The notes under the pieces: model-generated
The model's database searches: none
Seen by the model: only the letters and a program-made list of their open reading frames with translations
Told to the model about the DNA's origin: nothing
NCBI GenBank assembly: GCA_965223415.1
Contig: OZ245002.1
Span: 5,184,001 to 5,248,000, forward strand
Length of the DNA: 64,000 nt
Direction of reading: 5' to 3'
Source: Myxococcota bacterium
GTDB taxonomy: Bacteria > Myxococcota_A > UBA9160 > UBA6930
Program-made: the position numbers and the translations under genes
Part shown: positions 5,472 to 48,202 of the stretch, piece after piece
Position numbering within the stretch: position 1 is the stretch's first letter
Layout: each line of letters opens with the position of its first letter

Positions 5472-6932
5472 CTAGCCGACCTGCCTTCGTCGCGTCGAGG
5501 AGAGGATATTCATGGATTCCCGGTACTTCGTCACGGTGCGCCGGGCGATGTCGATATTGGCGGTCTTGAGCATCTCGGCGATCCGCTGGTCCGAGAGCGG
5601 GCGCCGGCCGTCCTCGTTGGCGATGATCTTGCGGATCTTCTCCTTCACGCTCTCGCTGGCGATCGCCTCGCCTTGCACCCGGTTGATGCTCGAGTTGAAG
5701 AAGTACTTGAGCTCGAAGATGCCCTGGGGCGTGTGGCAGTACTTGTTCGTGGTGACGCGGCTGACCGTGGACTCGTGCATGCCGATGTCGTCGGCCACGT
5801 CCCGCAGGTTCAGCGGCTTGAGGTAGGCGATGCCCTGCTCGAAGAACTCCCGCTGGTGACGGATGATGCTCTCCATCACCTTGTAGATCGTGCGCTGACG
5901 CTGGTGGATCGACTTGATCAGCCACATGGCCGCCCGGACCTTCTCCTGGACGTAGTCCCGGGTGTCCTTCTCGACGGAGCGGTCCTTCGCGAGCACGTCG
6001 CGGTAGAGGCTGTTGATCTTGAGCTTGGGTAACCCGTCCTCGTTCAGCACGATGTGGAACTCGTCACCGACCTTGTAGACGTAGATGTCCGGCGTGATGT
6101 AGATCGGCTCGTCGCCGCCGTAGGCCCGGCCGGGGCGCGGCTCGAGCTGGGCCACGACGTTCGCGGCGGCGGCCACCTCCTCGAGGGTGACCGAGAGCTC
6201 CCGGGCGACGCGGCGGAAGTCGCGCTTCTGGAGCGCATCGAGGTACTCGTCGATCAGGGTGCGGACCAGCGGATCCTTGATGCCCAGGGGAGCGAGCTGG
6301 TTCTGCAGGCACTCGCGAAGGTCCCGGGCGGCGACGCCCGGCGGGTCCAGGCGCTGCACCCGGGCCAGGGCCCGCTCCACGTCCTTCTCGTCCACGCCGG
6401 ACTGACGGGCGATCTCCTCGACGGTGGCGCGCAGGAAGCCGTTATCGTCCAGGTTCCCCAGGATCCAGCCCGCAGCGACCTTCTCCTCCTCCGGGAGGTC
6501 CGAGAGCGAGATCTGCCACTCCAGGTGGTCCTGGAGGGTTTCGCGCTTCGTGAGCGTCGCTTCGAAGCCGGGGCGCTCGTCGTCGTTCCGAATCACCGCG
6601 GAGCCCATGCCCGTCTGGGGGTAGGCGTCCATGTAGTTCTGCCAGTCGATGTCCGCGATCTTGTCGACGTCGGACGCCTCGCGGGGCTCGGTCGTGTCGG
6701 ACGACGCGTCGGCGGCCGCGGTCTCCGGCGCCTCTTCCTCCCGGCCGACCTCCTTGGGGAGCTCCTCGTCCACCTCGAGCACCTCGAGAACCGGGTTCTC
6801 CTGGAGCTCCTGGTGGACGGTCTGTTCGAGCTCGAGCCGCGAGAGCTGGAGCAGCTTGATCGCCTGCTGCAGCTGGGGCGTCATCACCAGCTGCTGGGAC
6901 AGCTTCAGCTGCTGCTTGAGCTCGATCGCCAT
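5472..6932 (-). CDS. rpoN: RNA polymerase sigma-54 factor
   Basis: Q/L-rich region I (MTPQLQQAIKLLQL), HESTVSR, RpoN box ARRTVTKYR. Confidence 0.98.
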   Translation of the reverse strand: MAIELKQQLKLSQQLVMTPQLQQAIKLLQLSRLELEQTVHQELQENPVLEVLEVDEELPKEVGREEEAPETAAADASSDTTEPREASDVDKIADIDWQNYMDAYPQTGMGSAVIRNDDERPGFEATLTKRETLQDHLEWQISLSDLPEEEKVAAGWILGNLDDNGFLRATVEEIARQSGVDEKDVERALARVQRLDPPGVAARDLRECLQNQLAPLGIKDPLVRTLIDEYLDALQKRDFRRVARELSVTLEEVAAAANVVAQLEPRPGRAYGGDEPIYITPDIYVYKVGDEFHIVLNEDGLPKLKINSLYRDVLAKDRSVEKDTRDYVQEKVRAAMWLIKSIHQRQRTIYKVMESIIRHQREFFEQGIAYLKPLNLRDVADDIGMHESTVSRVTTNKYCHTPQGIFELKYFFNSSINRVQGEAIASESVKEKIRKIIANEDGRRPLSDQRIAEMLKTANIDIARRTVTKYRESMNILSSTRRRQVG

Positions 6933-43012: not shown

Positions 43013-44143
43013 GTGCGCTGGCTGACGAGACTCCTTCCGCTCCTTCTCTGGCCGGCCGTCGCGGCAGCGGACGTGGCGGTGCCCCTGCCTCCGCAGCCCC
43101 CCGGCGTCGCCTGGCCCGCCGCGGCCTGGCCCGAAGGCGAGCTTCCGGCCGAGGTGGACGACGACGCCGTATCCGCCGCCCTGGACACGCTCTTCACGAG
43201 CGTGGGCCGCGGCGGTGTCCCGGACACCCGCGCTGTCCTCGTCGTCCGCGGCGGGGAGATCGTCGCGGAACGCTATGCGGAGGACTTCGGTCCGGAGACC
43301 CGCTTCCACTCCTGGTCGATGGGCAAGAGCGTCGTCCAGTGCCTCGTCGGCATCCTCGTCCGAGAGGGCCGGCTGGAGGTGGACGCGCCGGCACCGGTGC
43401 CGGCCTGGGACGGGCCCGACGATCCCCGCGCTCGGCTCACCCTTCGCCACCTGCTGCACATGACCACGGGCCTCGACAACGCCGACGGCGGCGCCGACCC
43501 CGCCGCGTTCGTCGGGCGGCTCCTGTTCGGCCCTCTCGCCCGGGACATGGCCGGCGCCGCGGCCGACGTCCCCCTCCTCCACGATCCCGGCACCCACTGG
43601 GCCTACTCGACCGGAACCAGCGCGATCCTCGGCGGGATCGTCTCTCGCCTCACGGGCCCGGACCGCGGGAGCACGCGACGCTGGATGGAGCGCGAGCTCC
43701 TCGAGCCGCTGGGCATCCGCTCCCTGGTGGCGGAGTTCGACGAGCACCAGCAGCTCGTCGGGGGAAGCCACGTGTGGGCCACGGCCCGCGACTGGGCCCG
43801 GCTCGGCCTCCTCTACCTCCGCGACGGCGTCTGGGACGGCCGCCCCATCCTGCCCGGCGGCTGGGTCGACTTCACGCGCGCCCGGGCCCCGGCCGAGAAC
43901 AACGGCACCTACGGCGCTCACTTCTGGCTGAACCGGAAGCCGCGGGAGGACCAGTTCCAGCCCCTGCCCGGCGCCCCCGAGAGCGCCTTTCAGATGAGCG
44001 GCAACGGCGGGCAGTACGTCGCCCTGGTTCCGGACCGCGACCTCGTCGTCGTGCGGCTGGGCGAGATGAGCGGCACCGACTGGTCGACCCTCGGCCGCCA
44101 GATGGGGGCGCTCGTCGCGGCCTTCCCGGCGGTCATGCCGTGA
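43013..44143 (+). CDS. Exported serine hydrolase (class C beta-lactamase/NylB-like)
   Basis: Signal peptide, SWSMGKS (SxxK), LLHMTTG, WAYST, GNGGQ. Confidence 0.9.
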   Translation: MRWLTRLLPLLLWPAVAAADVAVPLPPQPPGVAWPAAAWPEGELPAEVDDDAVSAALDTLFTSVGRGGVPDTRAVLVVRGGEIVAERYAEDFGPETRFHSWSMGKSVVQCLVGILVREGRLEVDAPAPVPAWDGPDDPRARLTLRHLLHMTTGLDNADGGADPAAFVGRLLFGPLARDMAGAAADVPLLHDPGTHWAYSTGTSAILGGIVSRLTGPDRGSTRRWMERELLEPLGIRSLVAEFDEHQQLVGGSHVWATARDWARLGLLYLRDGVWDGRPILPGGWVDFTRARAPAENNGTYGAHFWLNRKPREDQFQPLPGAPESAFQMSGNGGQYVALVPDRDLVVVRLGEMSGTDWSTLGRQMGALVAAFPAVMP

Positions 44144-44436
44144 AGCGCTTCGTCCTCGTGCTGCTGCTGGTCGCCGGGGCGGCCGGCGCCTGGTACCTGA
44201 CGAACCTGCGCGCCATGACCGACGTGGGCGCGGGCTTCGTCGCGAAGCAGATGTGCTCCTGCATGTTCATCGGCCAGCGCAGCTTCGCCTCGTGCCGGCC
44301 GGACATGCTGGAGTCGATGGACCCGATCGAGGCGGAGGTGCTGCCCGGCGGTGACGGCGTGCGCGCCTGGGTGCCGCTGTTGGCGGAACGCATCGCCCGC
44401 CATGAGGCCCCCTTCGGCTGCACCCTGGAGCCGTAG
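44140..44436 (+). CDS. Small membrane-anchored Cys-containing protein
   Basis: GTGA overlap; [12 protein letters not shown]...[16 protein letters not shown]...FGCTLEP. Confidence 0.8.
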
Positions 44437-44489
44437 CCCTCCCACCCGGCGCGCTCAGGCGCCACCCCCGGCCCTCCGATGCATCCCGC

Positions 44490-45839
44490 ATGGGAGAGAA
44501 CCCCTTCCCCGAGGCCCCGCCCACGGTCCTCCTCGTCAGCCGGGACCCGGAGGCGGCCAAGTGGCTCGATGCGGCTGTTGGCGGCGAGCTGCAGGTGCGC
44601 CAGGCCGAGCCCTCCGAGGTCGCCCGCGGCGCCACCTGGGTCGACGCGGCGGTCGCCGTCGCCCACTGGCGCGAGGAAGACGGCCCTGCAGCCCTCGACG
44701 CCCTGGGCGCCCTGCGCGAGCTGCCGATCGCAGAGCGCGTCGTGCTGGTGGCCGACGTGGAGCCCGCTGAGCTCGATCGCGGCCTCCAGGTCCTCCAGCC
44801 CCAGTGCTGGCTGCCGGATCCGCCTCCGGCGCCGGCCCTGGCCCGTGCCCTGCGGCAAGCCCTGCCCACCCGGCCCGGCGCCGGCGCCCGCCGTGGCCAG
44901 CGCCCGACGGCGGCCCTGCTCGGGGTCAGCGCCGCGCTTCGCGACGTGACCAAGGAGATCCGCCGCGTGGCGCCGACCCAGGCGTCCGTCCTGATCCTCG
45001 GCGAGACCGGCACCGGCAAGGAGCTCGCCGCGCGGGCCGTCCACGACCAGAGCACCCGGGCCGGCGGTCCGTTCGTCGCGATCAACTGCGGCGCGATGCC
45101 GGAGACGCTGCTCGAGAGCGAGTTGTTCGGGTCCTTGCGGGGCGCCTTCACCGGCGCCGAGCGCGACCGCGACGGGCTGTTCCGGGAGGCGGACGGAGGC
45201 ACCCTGTTCCTCGACGAGATCGGCGACACCACCCCCGCCCTACAGACGAAGCTGCTCCGGGTGCTCGAGGAGCGCGAGATCCGCCCGATCGGCGGCTCCG
45301 AGACCCGGCCGGTGAACGTGCGCATCGTCTCCGCCACCCACCGGGACCTGCCCGCGGCGATCGAGGCCGGCGAGTTCCGCCAGGACCTCTACTACCGGCT
45401 CAACACCGTCACCCTCGAGCTGCCTCCCCTCCGACGCCGCCGGGTCGACATCCCCTTCCTGGCCCAGCACTTCGCGGAGGCCTTCGGCGAGGAGAACGCC
45501 CGCCAGATCACCCTGAGCGACGAGTTCCTGGATGCCCTCTCCGCCTACGAGTTCCCGGGCAACGTGCGCGAGCTTCGCAATGCGGTGGAGCGCGCCATCG
45601 CGCTCACGCGGCCCGGCGAGGACGTGCCGGTCTCCGCGCTGCGCGCCGGCCCGACCGGCGGCGCCTCCACCTCGATCCCGACCGGTGGGGGCAGCCTTCG
45701 CGAGCAGGTGGAGCGTCTCGAAGTACAGCTCCTCCGGGAGGCCCTCGCCGAGCACGGCGGCAACAAGACCCGCGCAGCGGAGGCCCTCGGGCTGTCGAGG
45801 GTGGGGCTCGGCAAGAAGGTCAAGCGCTACGGCCTGTAG
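44490..45839 (+). CDS. Sigma-54-dependent enhancer-binding protein (Fis-type HTH) with a degenerate receiver-like N-terminus
   Basis: [54 protein letters not shown]. Confidence 0.95.
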
Positions 45840-45871
45840 CCCGGGCCTCACGCGCGCCGCTCCGCAGCCAC

Positions 45872-45888
45872 CGCCAACCAGGTTGGCG
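45872..45888. promoter_or_regulatory. 8-1-8 palindrome, candidate upstream activator sequence
   Basis: CGCCAACC-A-GGTTGGCG, about 200 nt upstream of the predicted sigma54 start; partial second copy CGCCAAC at 45896. Confidence 0.55.
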
Positions 45889-46056
45889 AAGCCGCCGCCA
45901 ACACCGTGAGCGGTGGCGTCCTGGACGCGGCGCTGGGCGACTTCGGGCGGAGCTGCGCAGCGGAGATGCCAGGCGCGACGAATTGCGGCCACCCGGCGCT
46001 CCGCGCCCGCCGAGCCGCCGGGCCGGAGACCGCGGGGTTGCAGGCGCAGCTGCACG

Positions 46057-46072
46057 TGGCACGTGCCTTGCT
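46057..46072 (+). promoter_or_regulatory. Sigma-54 (-24/-12) promoter
   Basis: TGGCAC-GTGCC-TTGCT, an exact match to TGGCAC-N5-TTGC(A/T). Confidence 0.85.
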
Positions 46073-46082
46073 CTAGTCAGAG

Positions 46083-46160
46083 GTCACGAACCAACGAGTT
46101 CCCCCCCAGAGCCCCCCCGACGGACCCGGTCGCCCCCCAGCGGCCGGGTCCACCCCTTCT
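46083..46160 (+). ncRNA. Candidate sigma54-dependent C-rich small RNA (Pxr-like architecture)
   Basis: Follows the -24/-12 promoter; C7, C7 and C6 tracts; 12-bp stem 46122-46133/46140-46151 with CCCCCA loop. Confidence 0.5.
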
Positions 46161-46188
46161 GGGGGCGTGCGCGTATACTCGCGCGCCC

Positions 46189-47280
46189 ATGGCAGATCTC
46201 GAGCCGAACGTCGACGCGGCACAGCTGGCGCCCCGCGGCCAGCCCCTCCACACGCGTACGTTGGTCGTGGACGTGATGCGGCACGATCCGGAGACCCTGC
46301 GCGCCGAGGGCCAGATCCTCGACGTCCGCAAGTGCGGCTTCGTGCCCGGCGCCGGTGATCTCCAGACCGCGGGCTTCATCCACCTGATGAAGATCGGCCT
46401 CGGGCTCGACCGGGAGGATCTGCGCATTCGCCGCCTCGAGGTGGACCAGCCGACCGTCGCCTACGAGCCGGACGCGGAGACCACCGGCGGTGAGTGCTGT
46501 CGGGACCCGGCGCCGCGCCTCCAGGCGCTGGTGGGCGAGCGACTGGACGACCGCTTCGCCGCCCGGCTGCGGGAGGTGTTCGGCGGCCCGCTCGGCTGCT
46601 CCCACCTCCTCACCCTGGCCCAGCTGATGGGCTCGAGCCTGCCCCCGGGCCTGGAGCAGGACCAGGCGATCGCCCCGAAAGGCCTTTCGGAACGAAGGGA
46701 TGGAGAACGTCTCTTCAAGCGCACCCTGATCCTCGACGGCCTGGCCGCAGGGCCGGGCCACATGGAGGTGACGGCCCAGCTGAGCGCCTTCCACATGCGG
46801 CCGCGGGAGCGTGTGGACATGCCCCTCGAGCGCCTGGCCCGGCTCCACGAGGTGCACGTGGACGCCCGGATCGGCCTCGAGGAGATGCAGCTCGTCGCTC
46901 TCGACGCGGCGGAGCGCGTGCGGAGCTGGGCGAGCTTCGGGGACGAGTCCTGGACGTCCCGCGCCGACGCGGTGGCTCCGTTCGTCGGGGGCCCTGCCCT
47001 GCGCGGGCTCTCCCGGGCCGTGCTGGAGCGCCTCGGTGGTCGCCCCGAGCACGAGCTGCTGACCGACGTGCTGCTCAACCTGGGACCGTGCCTGATCCAG
47101 TGCCTGGCGGCGACGTCGATGGAATGGATGGCCCGCGCCGCGCGCGGGCCGAAGGATCCCGCGCCGGAGTCCGCGCGCAGCGGACCGGACATGCAGTCGA
47201 TGGGCGGCTTTCCGGACTCCTGCTACGTGTGGCGCCGCGACGGCGCGATGGGCCGACGACGGTTCGGGGGCGACGGATGA
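46189..47280 (+). CDS. DUF2889-like protein (apparently two repeated domains)
   Basis: LHTRT...HLMKI...C...GPLGCSHL; second half FKRT...HEVHV...DSCYVW; TATACT 9 nt upstream of the ATG. Confidence 0.7.
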   Translation: MADLEPNVDAAQLAPRGQPLHTRTLVVDVMRHDPETLRAEGQILDVRKCGFVPGAGDLQTAGFIHLMKIGLGLDREDLRIRRLEVDQPTVAYEPDAETTGGECCRDPAPRLQALVGERLDDRFAARLREVFGGPLGCSHLLTLAQLMGSSLPPGLEQDQAIAPKGLSERRDGERLFKRTLILDGLAAGPGHMEVTAQLSAFHMRPRERVDMPLERLARLHEVHVDARIGLEEMQLVALDAAERVRSWASFGDESWTSRADAVAPFVGGPALRGLSRAVLERLGGRPEHELLTDVLLNLGPCLIQCLAATSMEWMARAARGPKDPAPESARSGPDMQSMGGFPDSCYVWRRDGAMGRRRFGGDG

Positions 47281-47302
47281 TGCATCGGACGACGAGGGAT
47301 CC

Positions 47303-48202
47303 ATGACACGACGACAGCTCCTCGGACTGGCACTCGCGGCCGCCACCGTGCTCGGGTGTGCGGCCCTGCCGGCGGCGACGTCTTCCGCCGATGCTCGCGC
47401 CGCGGACGCGGTGCCGGCGCCCCTGCGCATCCTCCTCACGAACGACGACGGCGTAGACGCTCCGGGTCTCGCCGCCGTGCGCGCCGCCCTGGTGGCGGCG
47501 GGGCACGAAGTGGTCGTGGTCGCGCCCGCTGGCAATCGCAGCGGCAGCAGCGTGAGCATCACCACCGAGGGCACCCTGGCCGCCGAAGAGCGGGAGCCCG
47601 GCGTGTGGAGCGTCTCCGGCACGCCGGCGGACTGCGTGCGGGTGGCCCTCGGTGCCGTGCTGGACTCGCCCCCGGACCTGGTGGTGTCCGGCGCCAACTT
47701 CGGCCAGAACGTGGGCGGCGGAACCACCTCCTCCGGCACGGTGGGCGCCGCGATCACGGCGCTGCGCCTGGGGGTGCCGGCGCTGGCGGTGAGCCAGGCG
47801 GTCGACTTCCGCGATCCCCGCGCCACGCTTCAGTTCTTTCCCGACGCGGCCGCGTTCACGGCGCGCCTGGTCGGCGCCCTGGCCGCCCGTCGCGGGGAAG
47901 GCCCGGTGCTTCCGCTGGGCCTGATCCTGAACGCGAACCATCCCACCCGCCACGCCGATGCGGTGGCCGGCGTGCGGCTCACCCGCCAGGGCGCGACGGC
48001 GGGTTTCGACCTGGCCTACGAGCGCAACGACGCCGGCTTCGAGATCGGCTTCCGTCCCGACGTGCGGGAGGAGACCGTGCCGAACGCCGACATCTCCGCC
48101 CTCAACGAGGGATTCGTCACGATCACGCCCCTCGACGGGGACTGGACCGCTACGCCGAGCACGGGGGCGGATCTCGCGGCCCTCGTCGACGCGCTGAACT
48201 AG
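47303..48202 (+). CDS. surE: SurE-family 5'/3'-nucleotidase with export signal
   Basis: ILLTNDDG, SGTPADCV, VVSGANFGQN, SGTVGAA, ITPL; N-terminal TRRQLL plus hydrophobic stretch. Confidence 0.9.
   Translation: MTRRQLLGLALAAATVLGCAALPAATSSADARAADAVPAPLRILLTNDDGVDAPGLAAVRAALVAAGHEVVVVAPAGNRSGSSVSITTEGTLAAEEREPGVWSVSGTPADCVRVALGAVLDSPPDLVVSGANFGQNVGGGTTSSGTVGAAITALRLGVPALAVSQAVDFRDPRATLQFFPDAAAFTARLVGALAARRGEGPVLPLGLILNANHPTRHADAVAGVRLTRQGATAGFDLAYERNDAGFEIGFRPDVREETVPNADISALNEGFVTITPLDGDWTATPSTGADLAALVDALN

Follow-up and report, generated by a model that had tools for sequence, protein, structure and literature searches.

Several bacterial small RNAs (sRNAs) that depend on sigma-54 are encoded beside the genes of their activators, as is the case for CrcZ and cbrB in Pseudomonas, Qrr and luxO in Vibrio, and GlmY and glrR in E. 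coli. CrcZ and GlmY work as protein decoys. The Desulfovibrio vulgaris RNA Dv_sRNA2 is described in PMC3333781 as lying downstream of its sigma-54 regulator gene DVU0679 and as being a target of that regulator. Pxr is an sRNA of Myxococcus xanthus and its relatives. In PMC5568312 its sigma-54 promoter is placed 3' of nla19, beyond an intergenic region of 262 nt, and its fold is given as three stem-loops; actinobacterial 6C RNAs are presented in PMC6486639 as binding their targets through C-rich loops. Here we analyze a locus of this general layout in a 64,000-nt stretch of a Myxococcota genome (GCA_965223415.1, contig OZ245002.1, positions 5,184,001 to 5,248,000), hereafter the window, in which all coordinates up to 64,000 are given. 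A sigma-54 activator gene is separated there from a gene for a DUF2889-domain protein by a 349-nt gap containing a dyad, a sigma-54 promoter and a predicted non-coding RNA. The module is genuine and is conserved; it does not belong to the Pxr family, and it falls within the known group of sigma-54-dependent sRNAs whose genes neighbour those of their activators. The genome holding the window (G000) consists of one contig of 5.83 Mb with 97% completeness, and the other five species of the genus are designated G001-G005. Records of this uncultured high-GC lineage carry the label Deltaproteobacteria.

The palindrome, promoter, C tracts, stem-loop, pair of complementary octamers and TATACT box that the initial annotation had read in this gap were all found in the sequence at the positions it gave. 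The dyad CGCCAACC-A-GGTTGGCG (45872..45888) is a perfect 8-1-8 palindrome ~200 bp upstream of the predicted start site, and it is the probable upstream activating sequence (UAS) of the adjacent activator. The promoter TGGCACGTGCCTTGCT (46057..46072, + strand), located 218 nt 3' of the activator stop codon, is an exact TGGCAC-N5-TTGCT with -24 and -12 elements fitting TGGCAC-N5-TTGCW. Assuming that the C of the -12 GC is position -12, transcription is predicted to start at about 46083. The predicted RNA of ~77 nt (46083..46159, + strand), both ends of which are predicted, contains C7 tracts at 46101-46107 and 46112-46118 and a C6 tract at 46133-46138. Its 12-bp stem (46122-46133 with 46140-46151, including one G-U pair) closes the loop CCCCCA (46134-46139) and is followed by the tail ACCCCUUC.

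The same arrangement recurs throughout the genus. In 6/6 species the activator 3' end, the dyad, the exact promoter and the C-rich element stand in identical order as far as the contigs reach, which bears out the expectation that promoter and hairpin would be kept together behind the activator gene in relatives. The promoter occupies the equivalent position in G001-G005. Among the four species with full sequences, identical columns amount to 59/78 in the activator 3' coding sequence, 12/17 in the dyad, 13/16 in the promoter and 57/83 in the element, compared with 40/169 in the dyad-promoter spacer and 2/74 in the spacer downstream of the element. The conserved stretch opens at the predicted transcription start and closes at a short T run. 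Within the otherwise 24% identical dyad-promoter spacer, the four-species alignment shows an island of identity, G-GACGAA-NN-GCGGC (45975..45989), which may be a second protein site.

Conservation is also what makes the dyad and the promoter credible, since neither is individually remarkable. The 64-kb window contains 6 perfect palindromes of the 8-1-8 type, and its perfect inverted repeats of 8 bp with a spacer of 0-3 number 22, so that the palindrome by itself is unremarkable. For promoter matches with up to one mismatch, the chance expectation in the window is 0.86, with at least one match in 59/100 shuffles, so that a single match taken alone is at about chance level. Genome-wide, exact promoter matches number 22 compared with 4 for the reversed-pattern control. 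The dyad 17-mer occurs once in G000, and a dyad of the type CGMCAAC-N1-3-GTTGKCG lies just 3' of the activator stop codon in 6/6 species, with at least two copies in G003 and in G004. The G000 dyad carries a matching change in both half-sites (GCCAAC/GTTGGC), which preserves its symmetry.

Across the genus the element measures ~77-80 nt; it begins at the predicted start and comprises two C7-8 tracts and a 12-bp hairpin with a C-rich loop, followed by ACCCCUUU. Its consensus can be written as TCACGAACCAACGAGTT-C7-(A)AGAG-C7/8, the hairpin, and then ACCCCTTT. In the consensus fold of four species the 12-bp hairpin is the sole helix, and the 5' ~40 nt of the RNA, including both C7-8 tracts, are unpaired. 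All 60 of the 60 informative stem cells are paired; two pairs have changed on both sides (A-U to G-C and C-G to U-A) and two further pairs have become G-U. A coding frame is excluded because one-base indels separate the species within the element. The complementarity of CCCCCAGA (46103-46110) and TCTGGGGG (46158-46165), which the initial annotation had taken as possible additional pairing, holds in G000, where the single-sequence fold uses it (-41.9 kcal/mol, z -4.24, 0/200 shuffles as good), but it is not conserved, as the 3' partner is missing from G003, G004 and G005.

The activator gene (44490..45839, + strand) encodes a 449-aa enhancer-binding protein (EBP), as identified by its Pfam domains: the AAA+ sigma-54 interaction domain Sigma54_activat (2.5e-70), the lid AAA_lid_14 and a C-terminal Fis-type HTH_8. 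The motif GAFTGA is readable in its translation. The N-terminal ~140 aa (44490-44915, + strand) gave zero significant Pfam matches, with receiver, GAF and PAS models all negative; NCBIfam equivalogs were all below cut-off for the protein, and no histidine kinase gene was recognised adjoining it. The genome possesses rpoN, and an RpoN (sigma-54) DNA-binding domain is encoded within the window at 5481-5957 (- strand), ~40 kb upstream of the RNA locus.

Searches outside the genus yielded no comparable locus. In a set of 33 family genomes, BLAST with the promoter plus element found it in 5/5 other genus species, and the 27 other family genomes gave only short weak matches in 5 genomes (25-44 nt, E 3e-4 to 9e-3) with the promoter absent nearby. 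A covariance model, R1, built from four species and run over 151 genomes of the order, detected one copy in G000 and recovered the element in 5/5 other genus species. In the 145 genomes outside the genus it produced nine weak matches (25.8-35.4 bits). Seven of these were inspected and had no sigma-54 motif within 300 nt upstream, several being hairpins at gene ends; the other two (L156 and L157) are short hairpin-only matches. A scan with the conserved C-tract pattern returned only 3 known genus members among genome contigs and 2 unrelated chance matches among metagenome contigs. The next-best relative of the activator outside the genus (L043, 57% identity) has no sigma-54 motif within 3 kb.

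Two metagenome-assembled contigs, L034 (G005) and L035 (G001), end inside C tracts, one of them continuing as spurious poly-C. These assemblies seem to break at homopolymer C runs, and such elements may be hidden elsewhere. In G001 the contig ends within the element, and the DUF2889 query was unmatched in this 93%-complete assembly.

The parallel proposed in the initial annotation was Pxr, and the locus resembles the Pxr/nla19 system in several respects. In both, an RNA gene with its own sigma-54 promoter closely follows the gene of a sigma-54 activator; the intergenic lengths are similar (262 nt as reported for Pxr in PMC5568312 and ~243 nt here, 45840-46082); and the RNA exposes a C run, as does the Rfam consensus of Pxr. 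In addition, GUUCCCCCCCA and CCACCCCUUC are common to this RNA and the first stem-loop of the Rfam Pxr consensus, although the folds differ. In contrast to the three stem-loops of Pxr (SL1-SL3) in 108-109 nt, there is one hairpin in ~77 nt here. SL3 of Pxr is a U-tailed terminator, whereas a strong U-tailed terminator is absent from this locus. The 3' neighbour is the DUF2889 gene instead of a NADH dehydrogenase gene, and the element is restricted to one uncultured genus.

The Rfam Pxr model, which had been suggested as a check, gave a negative answer. True Pxr loci were retrieved by means of a primer printed in PMC5568312, and as a positive control RF01812 scored 5/5 of them at 105.7-129 bits (gathering score 80 bits). 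The same model had no match at E<=10 in either the 4 kb of 44000-48000 or the 161 nt of 46040-46200. In the four of five loci that matched, the activator shares 34-37% identity with C-terminal nla19 fragments, and against one Pxr-bearing genome it showed 77 paralogue-level matches, the best of which were all ~49-50% identical. On these comparisons it is not demonstrable as an nla19 orthologue. Thus, the layout of a sigma-54 promoter behind an activator gene stands as a Pxr-like trait, but membership in the family does not, given the negative RF01812 result, the single hairpin and an activator not specific to nla19.

No sequence or structure relation to any family was found in the Rfam scan. 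The best resemblance was to 6C RNA (RF01066) with an insignificant 20.5 bits (gathering score 47, E 0.71), and only the second hairpin of that model aligned. The two RNAs share a GC-rich hairpin displaying a loop of about six C. They differ in that 6C has two hairpins and this RNA has one, with two extra C tracts in the unpaired 5' sequence, and in the sigma-54 promoter and adjacent activator found here. With Dv_sRNA2/DVU0679, and likewise with the CrcZ, Qrr and GlmY systems, the locus shares a local module that unites an activator gene and its binding site with a small RNA under a sigma-54 promoter. Unlike for CrcZ and GlmY, nothing at this locus indicates a known protein partner. Among the features of the sigma-54 sRNA class, those present are a -24/-12 consensus, rpoN in the genome, an adjacent activator with GAFTGA, an upstream dyad that could bind the activator and is conserved in 6/6 species, and a predicted non-coding RNA conserved in sequence and structure. 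Literature searches with general terms returned no mention of this RNA, a result that does not prove its absence from print.

The gene downstream of the element (46189..47280, + strand; 363 aa, ATG at 46189) encodes a DUF2889-domain protein (Pfam, 3.8e-20) and has a promoter of its own. A -10-type box, TATACT (46174..46179, + strand), is located 9 nt before its ATG in the absence of a Shine-Dalgarno sequence, an arrangement of the leaderless type, and is separated from the element by a non-conserved spacer of varying length (46160..46172, + strand). The ATG comes 26 nt after the T run in G000 and 55-87 nt after it in the other species. Within the genus, GTATACTC-N5-7-CCCATG is conserved (16/19 columns), and a generic sigma-70 scan did not detect a -35/-10 pair at the TATACT site. 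DUF2889 orthologues were found in 21/41 related genomes, G000 included. At 15/21 of these loci a TANNNT box precedes an in-frame start by 7-10 nt without a Shine-Dalgarno sequence, compared with 22/2408 start-like triplets in the same loci. The loci with this box include other genera without the activator, the RNA or the sigma-54 motif. The box bears the hallmark of mRNAs that are leaderless, or nearly so, and it is older than the activator-RNA cassette. The claim that the next gene does not need the sigma-54 promoter is therefore upheld, and since the gene retains its older leaderless-type promoter, DUF2889 is in our reading not the cargo of the RNA. The cassette lies immediately 5' of this gene, which is the older of the two.

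Among the 21 DUF2889 loci, the activator adjoins DUF2889 only at L009 (G000), L010, L012 and L013, all of the same genus, and these four loci are also the only ones with a sigma-54 motif within 450 nt upstream. At a further locus of the genus, L011, only 106 nt of sequence precede DUF2889. At L015, L016 and L019, from two other genera, the gene directly upstream of DUF2889 encodes a product ending in GCTLY or GCVLY, and its G000 counterpart (ending in FGCTLEP at 44436) lies upstream of the activator. The two upstream regions are joined by tblastn over ~400 translated codons (E 7e-27 to 2e-51). We read this link as synteny and not as a protein match, because much of the long reading frame is probably not a true frame. 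With flanking genes syntenic in other genera, the activator-RNA unit looks like an insertion, and the simplest history suggested by these comparisons is that activator and RNA entered as one unit between the two genes in the ancestor of the genus. The gene surE (window 47303-48202, + strand) follows DUF2889 solely in G000 and at none of the other DUF2889 loci. As surE is thus not syntenic across the genus, DUF2889 does not form a conserved operon with it.

We regard the anatomy, the conservation pattern, the compensatory stem changes, the non-coding nature and the insertion history as established, and on this basis we consider that the locus has somewhat better than an even chance of encoding a genus-specific, sigma-54-dependent and probably trans-acting sRNA beside its activator. 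In this proposal, the activator would bind the dyad behind its own gene and then open the sigma-54 promoter ~200 bp downstream. RNA polymerase would produce a non-coding RNA of ~77-80 nt, with predicted ends and with termination presumed to occur at the hairpin. The unpaired 5' C tracts and the hairpin loop of this RNA would expose C residues for pairing, most likely in trans with G-rich ribosome-binding regions of target mRNAs, as 6C-type sRNAs do.

Several observations weigh against this proposal. The start, the end and the sigma-54 dependence of the RNA are predictions from sequence. As the initial annotation had cautioned, the hairpin is a poor intrinsic terminator: ACCCC intervenes between the stem and only 2-4 T, and terminator scans were silent at the hairpin in G000 and in G003. 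By the canonical definition (a GC-rich stem directly followed by a U tract, with at least five T in eight), the stem is present and the tail, ACCCCTTC in G000 and ACCCCTTT(T) in relatives, falls short. Rho was not detected in the one-contig, 97%-complete genome with PF07497 and TIGR00767, the latter giving only two ATPase-level matches far below cut-off (2158547-2159269 and 2008781-2009554). There is therefore no obvious back-up for termination, and read-through into DUF2889 is plausible. A function of the C-rich, G-poor RNA as a Rho loading (rut) site was rejected, because neither model detected Rho. The weak-terminator problem is partially mitigated by the flagellin gene of G000, which likewise has GC hairpins without a U tract at its 3' side; the pilin gene has a canonical terminator.

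Further points concern structure, targets and position. Covariation among regions behind the orthologous activators, named beforehand as a check, includes the two double changes and a fully paired stem but is modest: with five informative sequences, 43/500 shuffles match the observed score. It is supportive and not strong because the sequences are so few. An extended complement to the C7-AGAG-C7 core is absent elsewhere in G000. G runs occur before start codons so often (310, compared with 206 for C runs as a control) that they are not informative. Duplex energies with the 5' end of DUF2889 and with the start region of the activator were no better than those of shuffled RNA (z 0.09 to 2.66, all on the worse side). 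Finally, the element lies upstream of DUF2889 in 4/4 species with continuing contigs, and with synteny so constant, synteny cannot separate the element from DUF2889.

The last of these points belongs equally to the main rival explanation, in which DUF2889 (together with surE in G000) has the sigma-54 promoter as a second promoter under activator control and the element is a leader acting in cis, its hairpin serving for instance as a stabiliser or partial attenuator. It is ordinary for an activator gene to precede the sigma-54 promoter of the next gene. L044 is an example, with a related activator, such a promoter behind it and then a gene that has a normal Shine-Dalgarno sequence. Same-strand placement upstream of DUF2889, the weak terminator and the failure to find Rho would all suit such a leader. 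In contrast, DUF2889 begins with an ATG without a Shine-Dalgarno sequence, which 15/22 sigma-54 promoters in G000 do have downstream, and it retains its ancestral leaderless-type box. The unconserved spacer between element and start (2/74 columns, 26-87 nt) argues against control via the start region, and the genes 3' of DUF2889 differ between species, with surE present only in G000. We consider this explanation possible but rather doubtful. The leaderless promoter takes a different part if activator-driven transcription represses it from 15-90 nt upstream, by interference or insulation, the hairpin metering passage and the RNA being a by-product. The T run ends just 14 nt before TATACT in G000, the cassette was inserted immediately before the leaderless promoter, and ribosomes would be expected to translate a read-through transcript poorly from an internal AUG that has no Shine-Dalgarno sequence. 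Such a mechanism does not depend on conservation of the RNA sequence. However, the first 40 nt, which are unpaired and hold the C tracts, match the promoter in conservation, and the distance to TATACT differs several-fold across species, which makes interference an improbable account of the element.

That the RNA is a highly diverged Pxr homologue appears very improbable. The order of activator, ~245-260-nt intergenic stretch, sigma-54 promoter and small RNA is the same and GUUCCCCCCCA and CCACCCCUUC are shared, but the element fails RF01812 even on 161 nt, has one hairpin and not three, and is followed by a different gene, and dozens of paralogues are at least as close to the activator as the nla19 fragments are. 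Least credible of all is that the gap holds functionless GC-rich filler: a lone palindrome and a lone promoter match are each within the expectation for the window, but the ordered features are conserved in six species while the flanking spacers have diverged, and the stem changes are compensatory. The proposed trans-acting sRNA might also be combined with an effect on the neighbouring gene. In this more speculative and, in our view, unlikely scheme, the cassette would have been acquired by the genus as one unit in front of a leaderless gene, and the RNA would do two jobs. Its exposed poly-C would target G-rich ribosome sites in trans, and its U-poor hairpin, with no Rho found in the genome, would set the level of sigma-54 transcription over the leaderless promoter. 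Taken with the second conserved sigma-54-linked RNA candidate of these genomes, the lineage would then use sigma-54 activator-sRNA cassettes as a general, fast-evolving regulatory layer.

The other exact sigma-54 promoters of G000 provide a context for the RNA locus. For 15/22 of them, a GGAG or GAGG, a start codon and an open reading frame (ORF) of at least 100 aa follow within 200 nt, compared with 434/2000 random positions. Inspection by eye revealed two more promoters with a G-rich ribosome site missed by the script and three with an ATG at the predicted start. Three exact promoters remained as orphans: that of the RNA locus, 3874520 and 1522721. At the RNA locus no GGAG/GAGG, start codon and ORF combination occurs within 200 nt, and the DUF2889 ATG lacks a Shine-Dalgarno sequence. 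The orphan at 3874520 (- strand) is followed only by a 5-codon ORF, with a tRNA-like sequence on the opposite strand. The three promoters whose predicted start coincides with an ATG or lies no more than 6 nt from one, 739125 (+ strand), 798536 (- strand) and 1132696 (- strand), may yield leaderless sigma-54 transcripts. Also in this genome, a ~56-nt identical stretch starting with GGCGAGGCGGTCGAGGGCGC occurs at least 8 times on both strands (for example at 1067977, 5388335, 5428321 and 4411373) and is probably a multi-copy insertion sequence or repeat gene.

The third orphan promoter lies beyond the window at 1522721-1522830 (+ strand; L008 1501-1610), where TGGCACGTGCCTTGCT occurs exactly for a second time and a nested hairpin lies within the ~95 nt that follow. 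This element contains an unpaired ACCCCUCCCCUC, which resembles an anti-Shine-Dalgarno sequence, and a T-rich tail, and an ORF with a ribosome site is absent downstream. Its promoter and 3' structure are conserved in 6/6 genus genomes, and it gave zero Rfam matches. It is a stronger sRNA candidate than the RNA beside the activator. By these sequence features the genus has at least two putative sigma-54-linked, C-rich, hairpin-ended non-coding elements, a design that appears to recur.

The design principle itself has already been set by Pxr, CrcZ, Qrr, GlmY and Dv_sRNA2, and the present locus is useful rather than surprising. If the short transcript is real, it would represent an sRNA family new to Rfam, for which the activator and a probable operator are already identified. 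It would also offer a dated case, of about the age of the genus, of an activator-sRNA pair arising and landing beside an existing gene.

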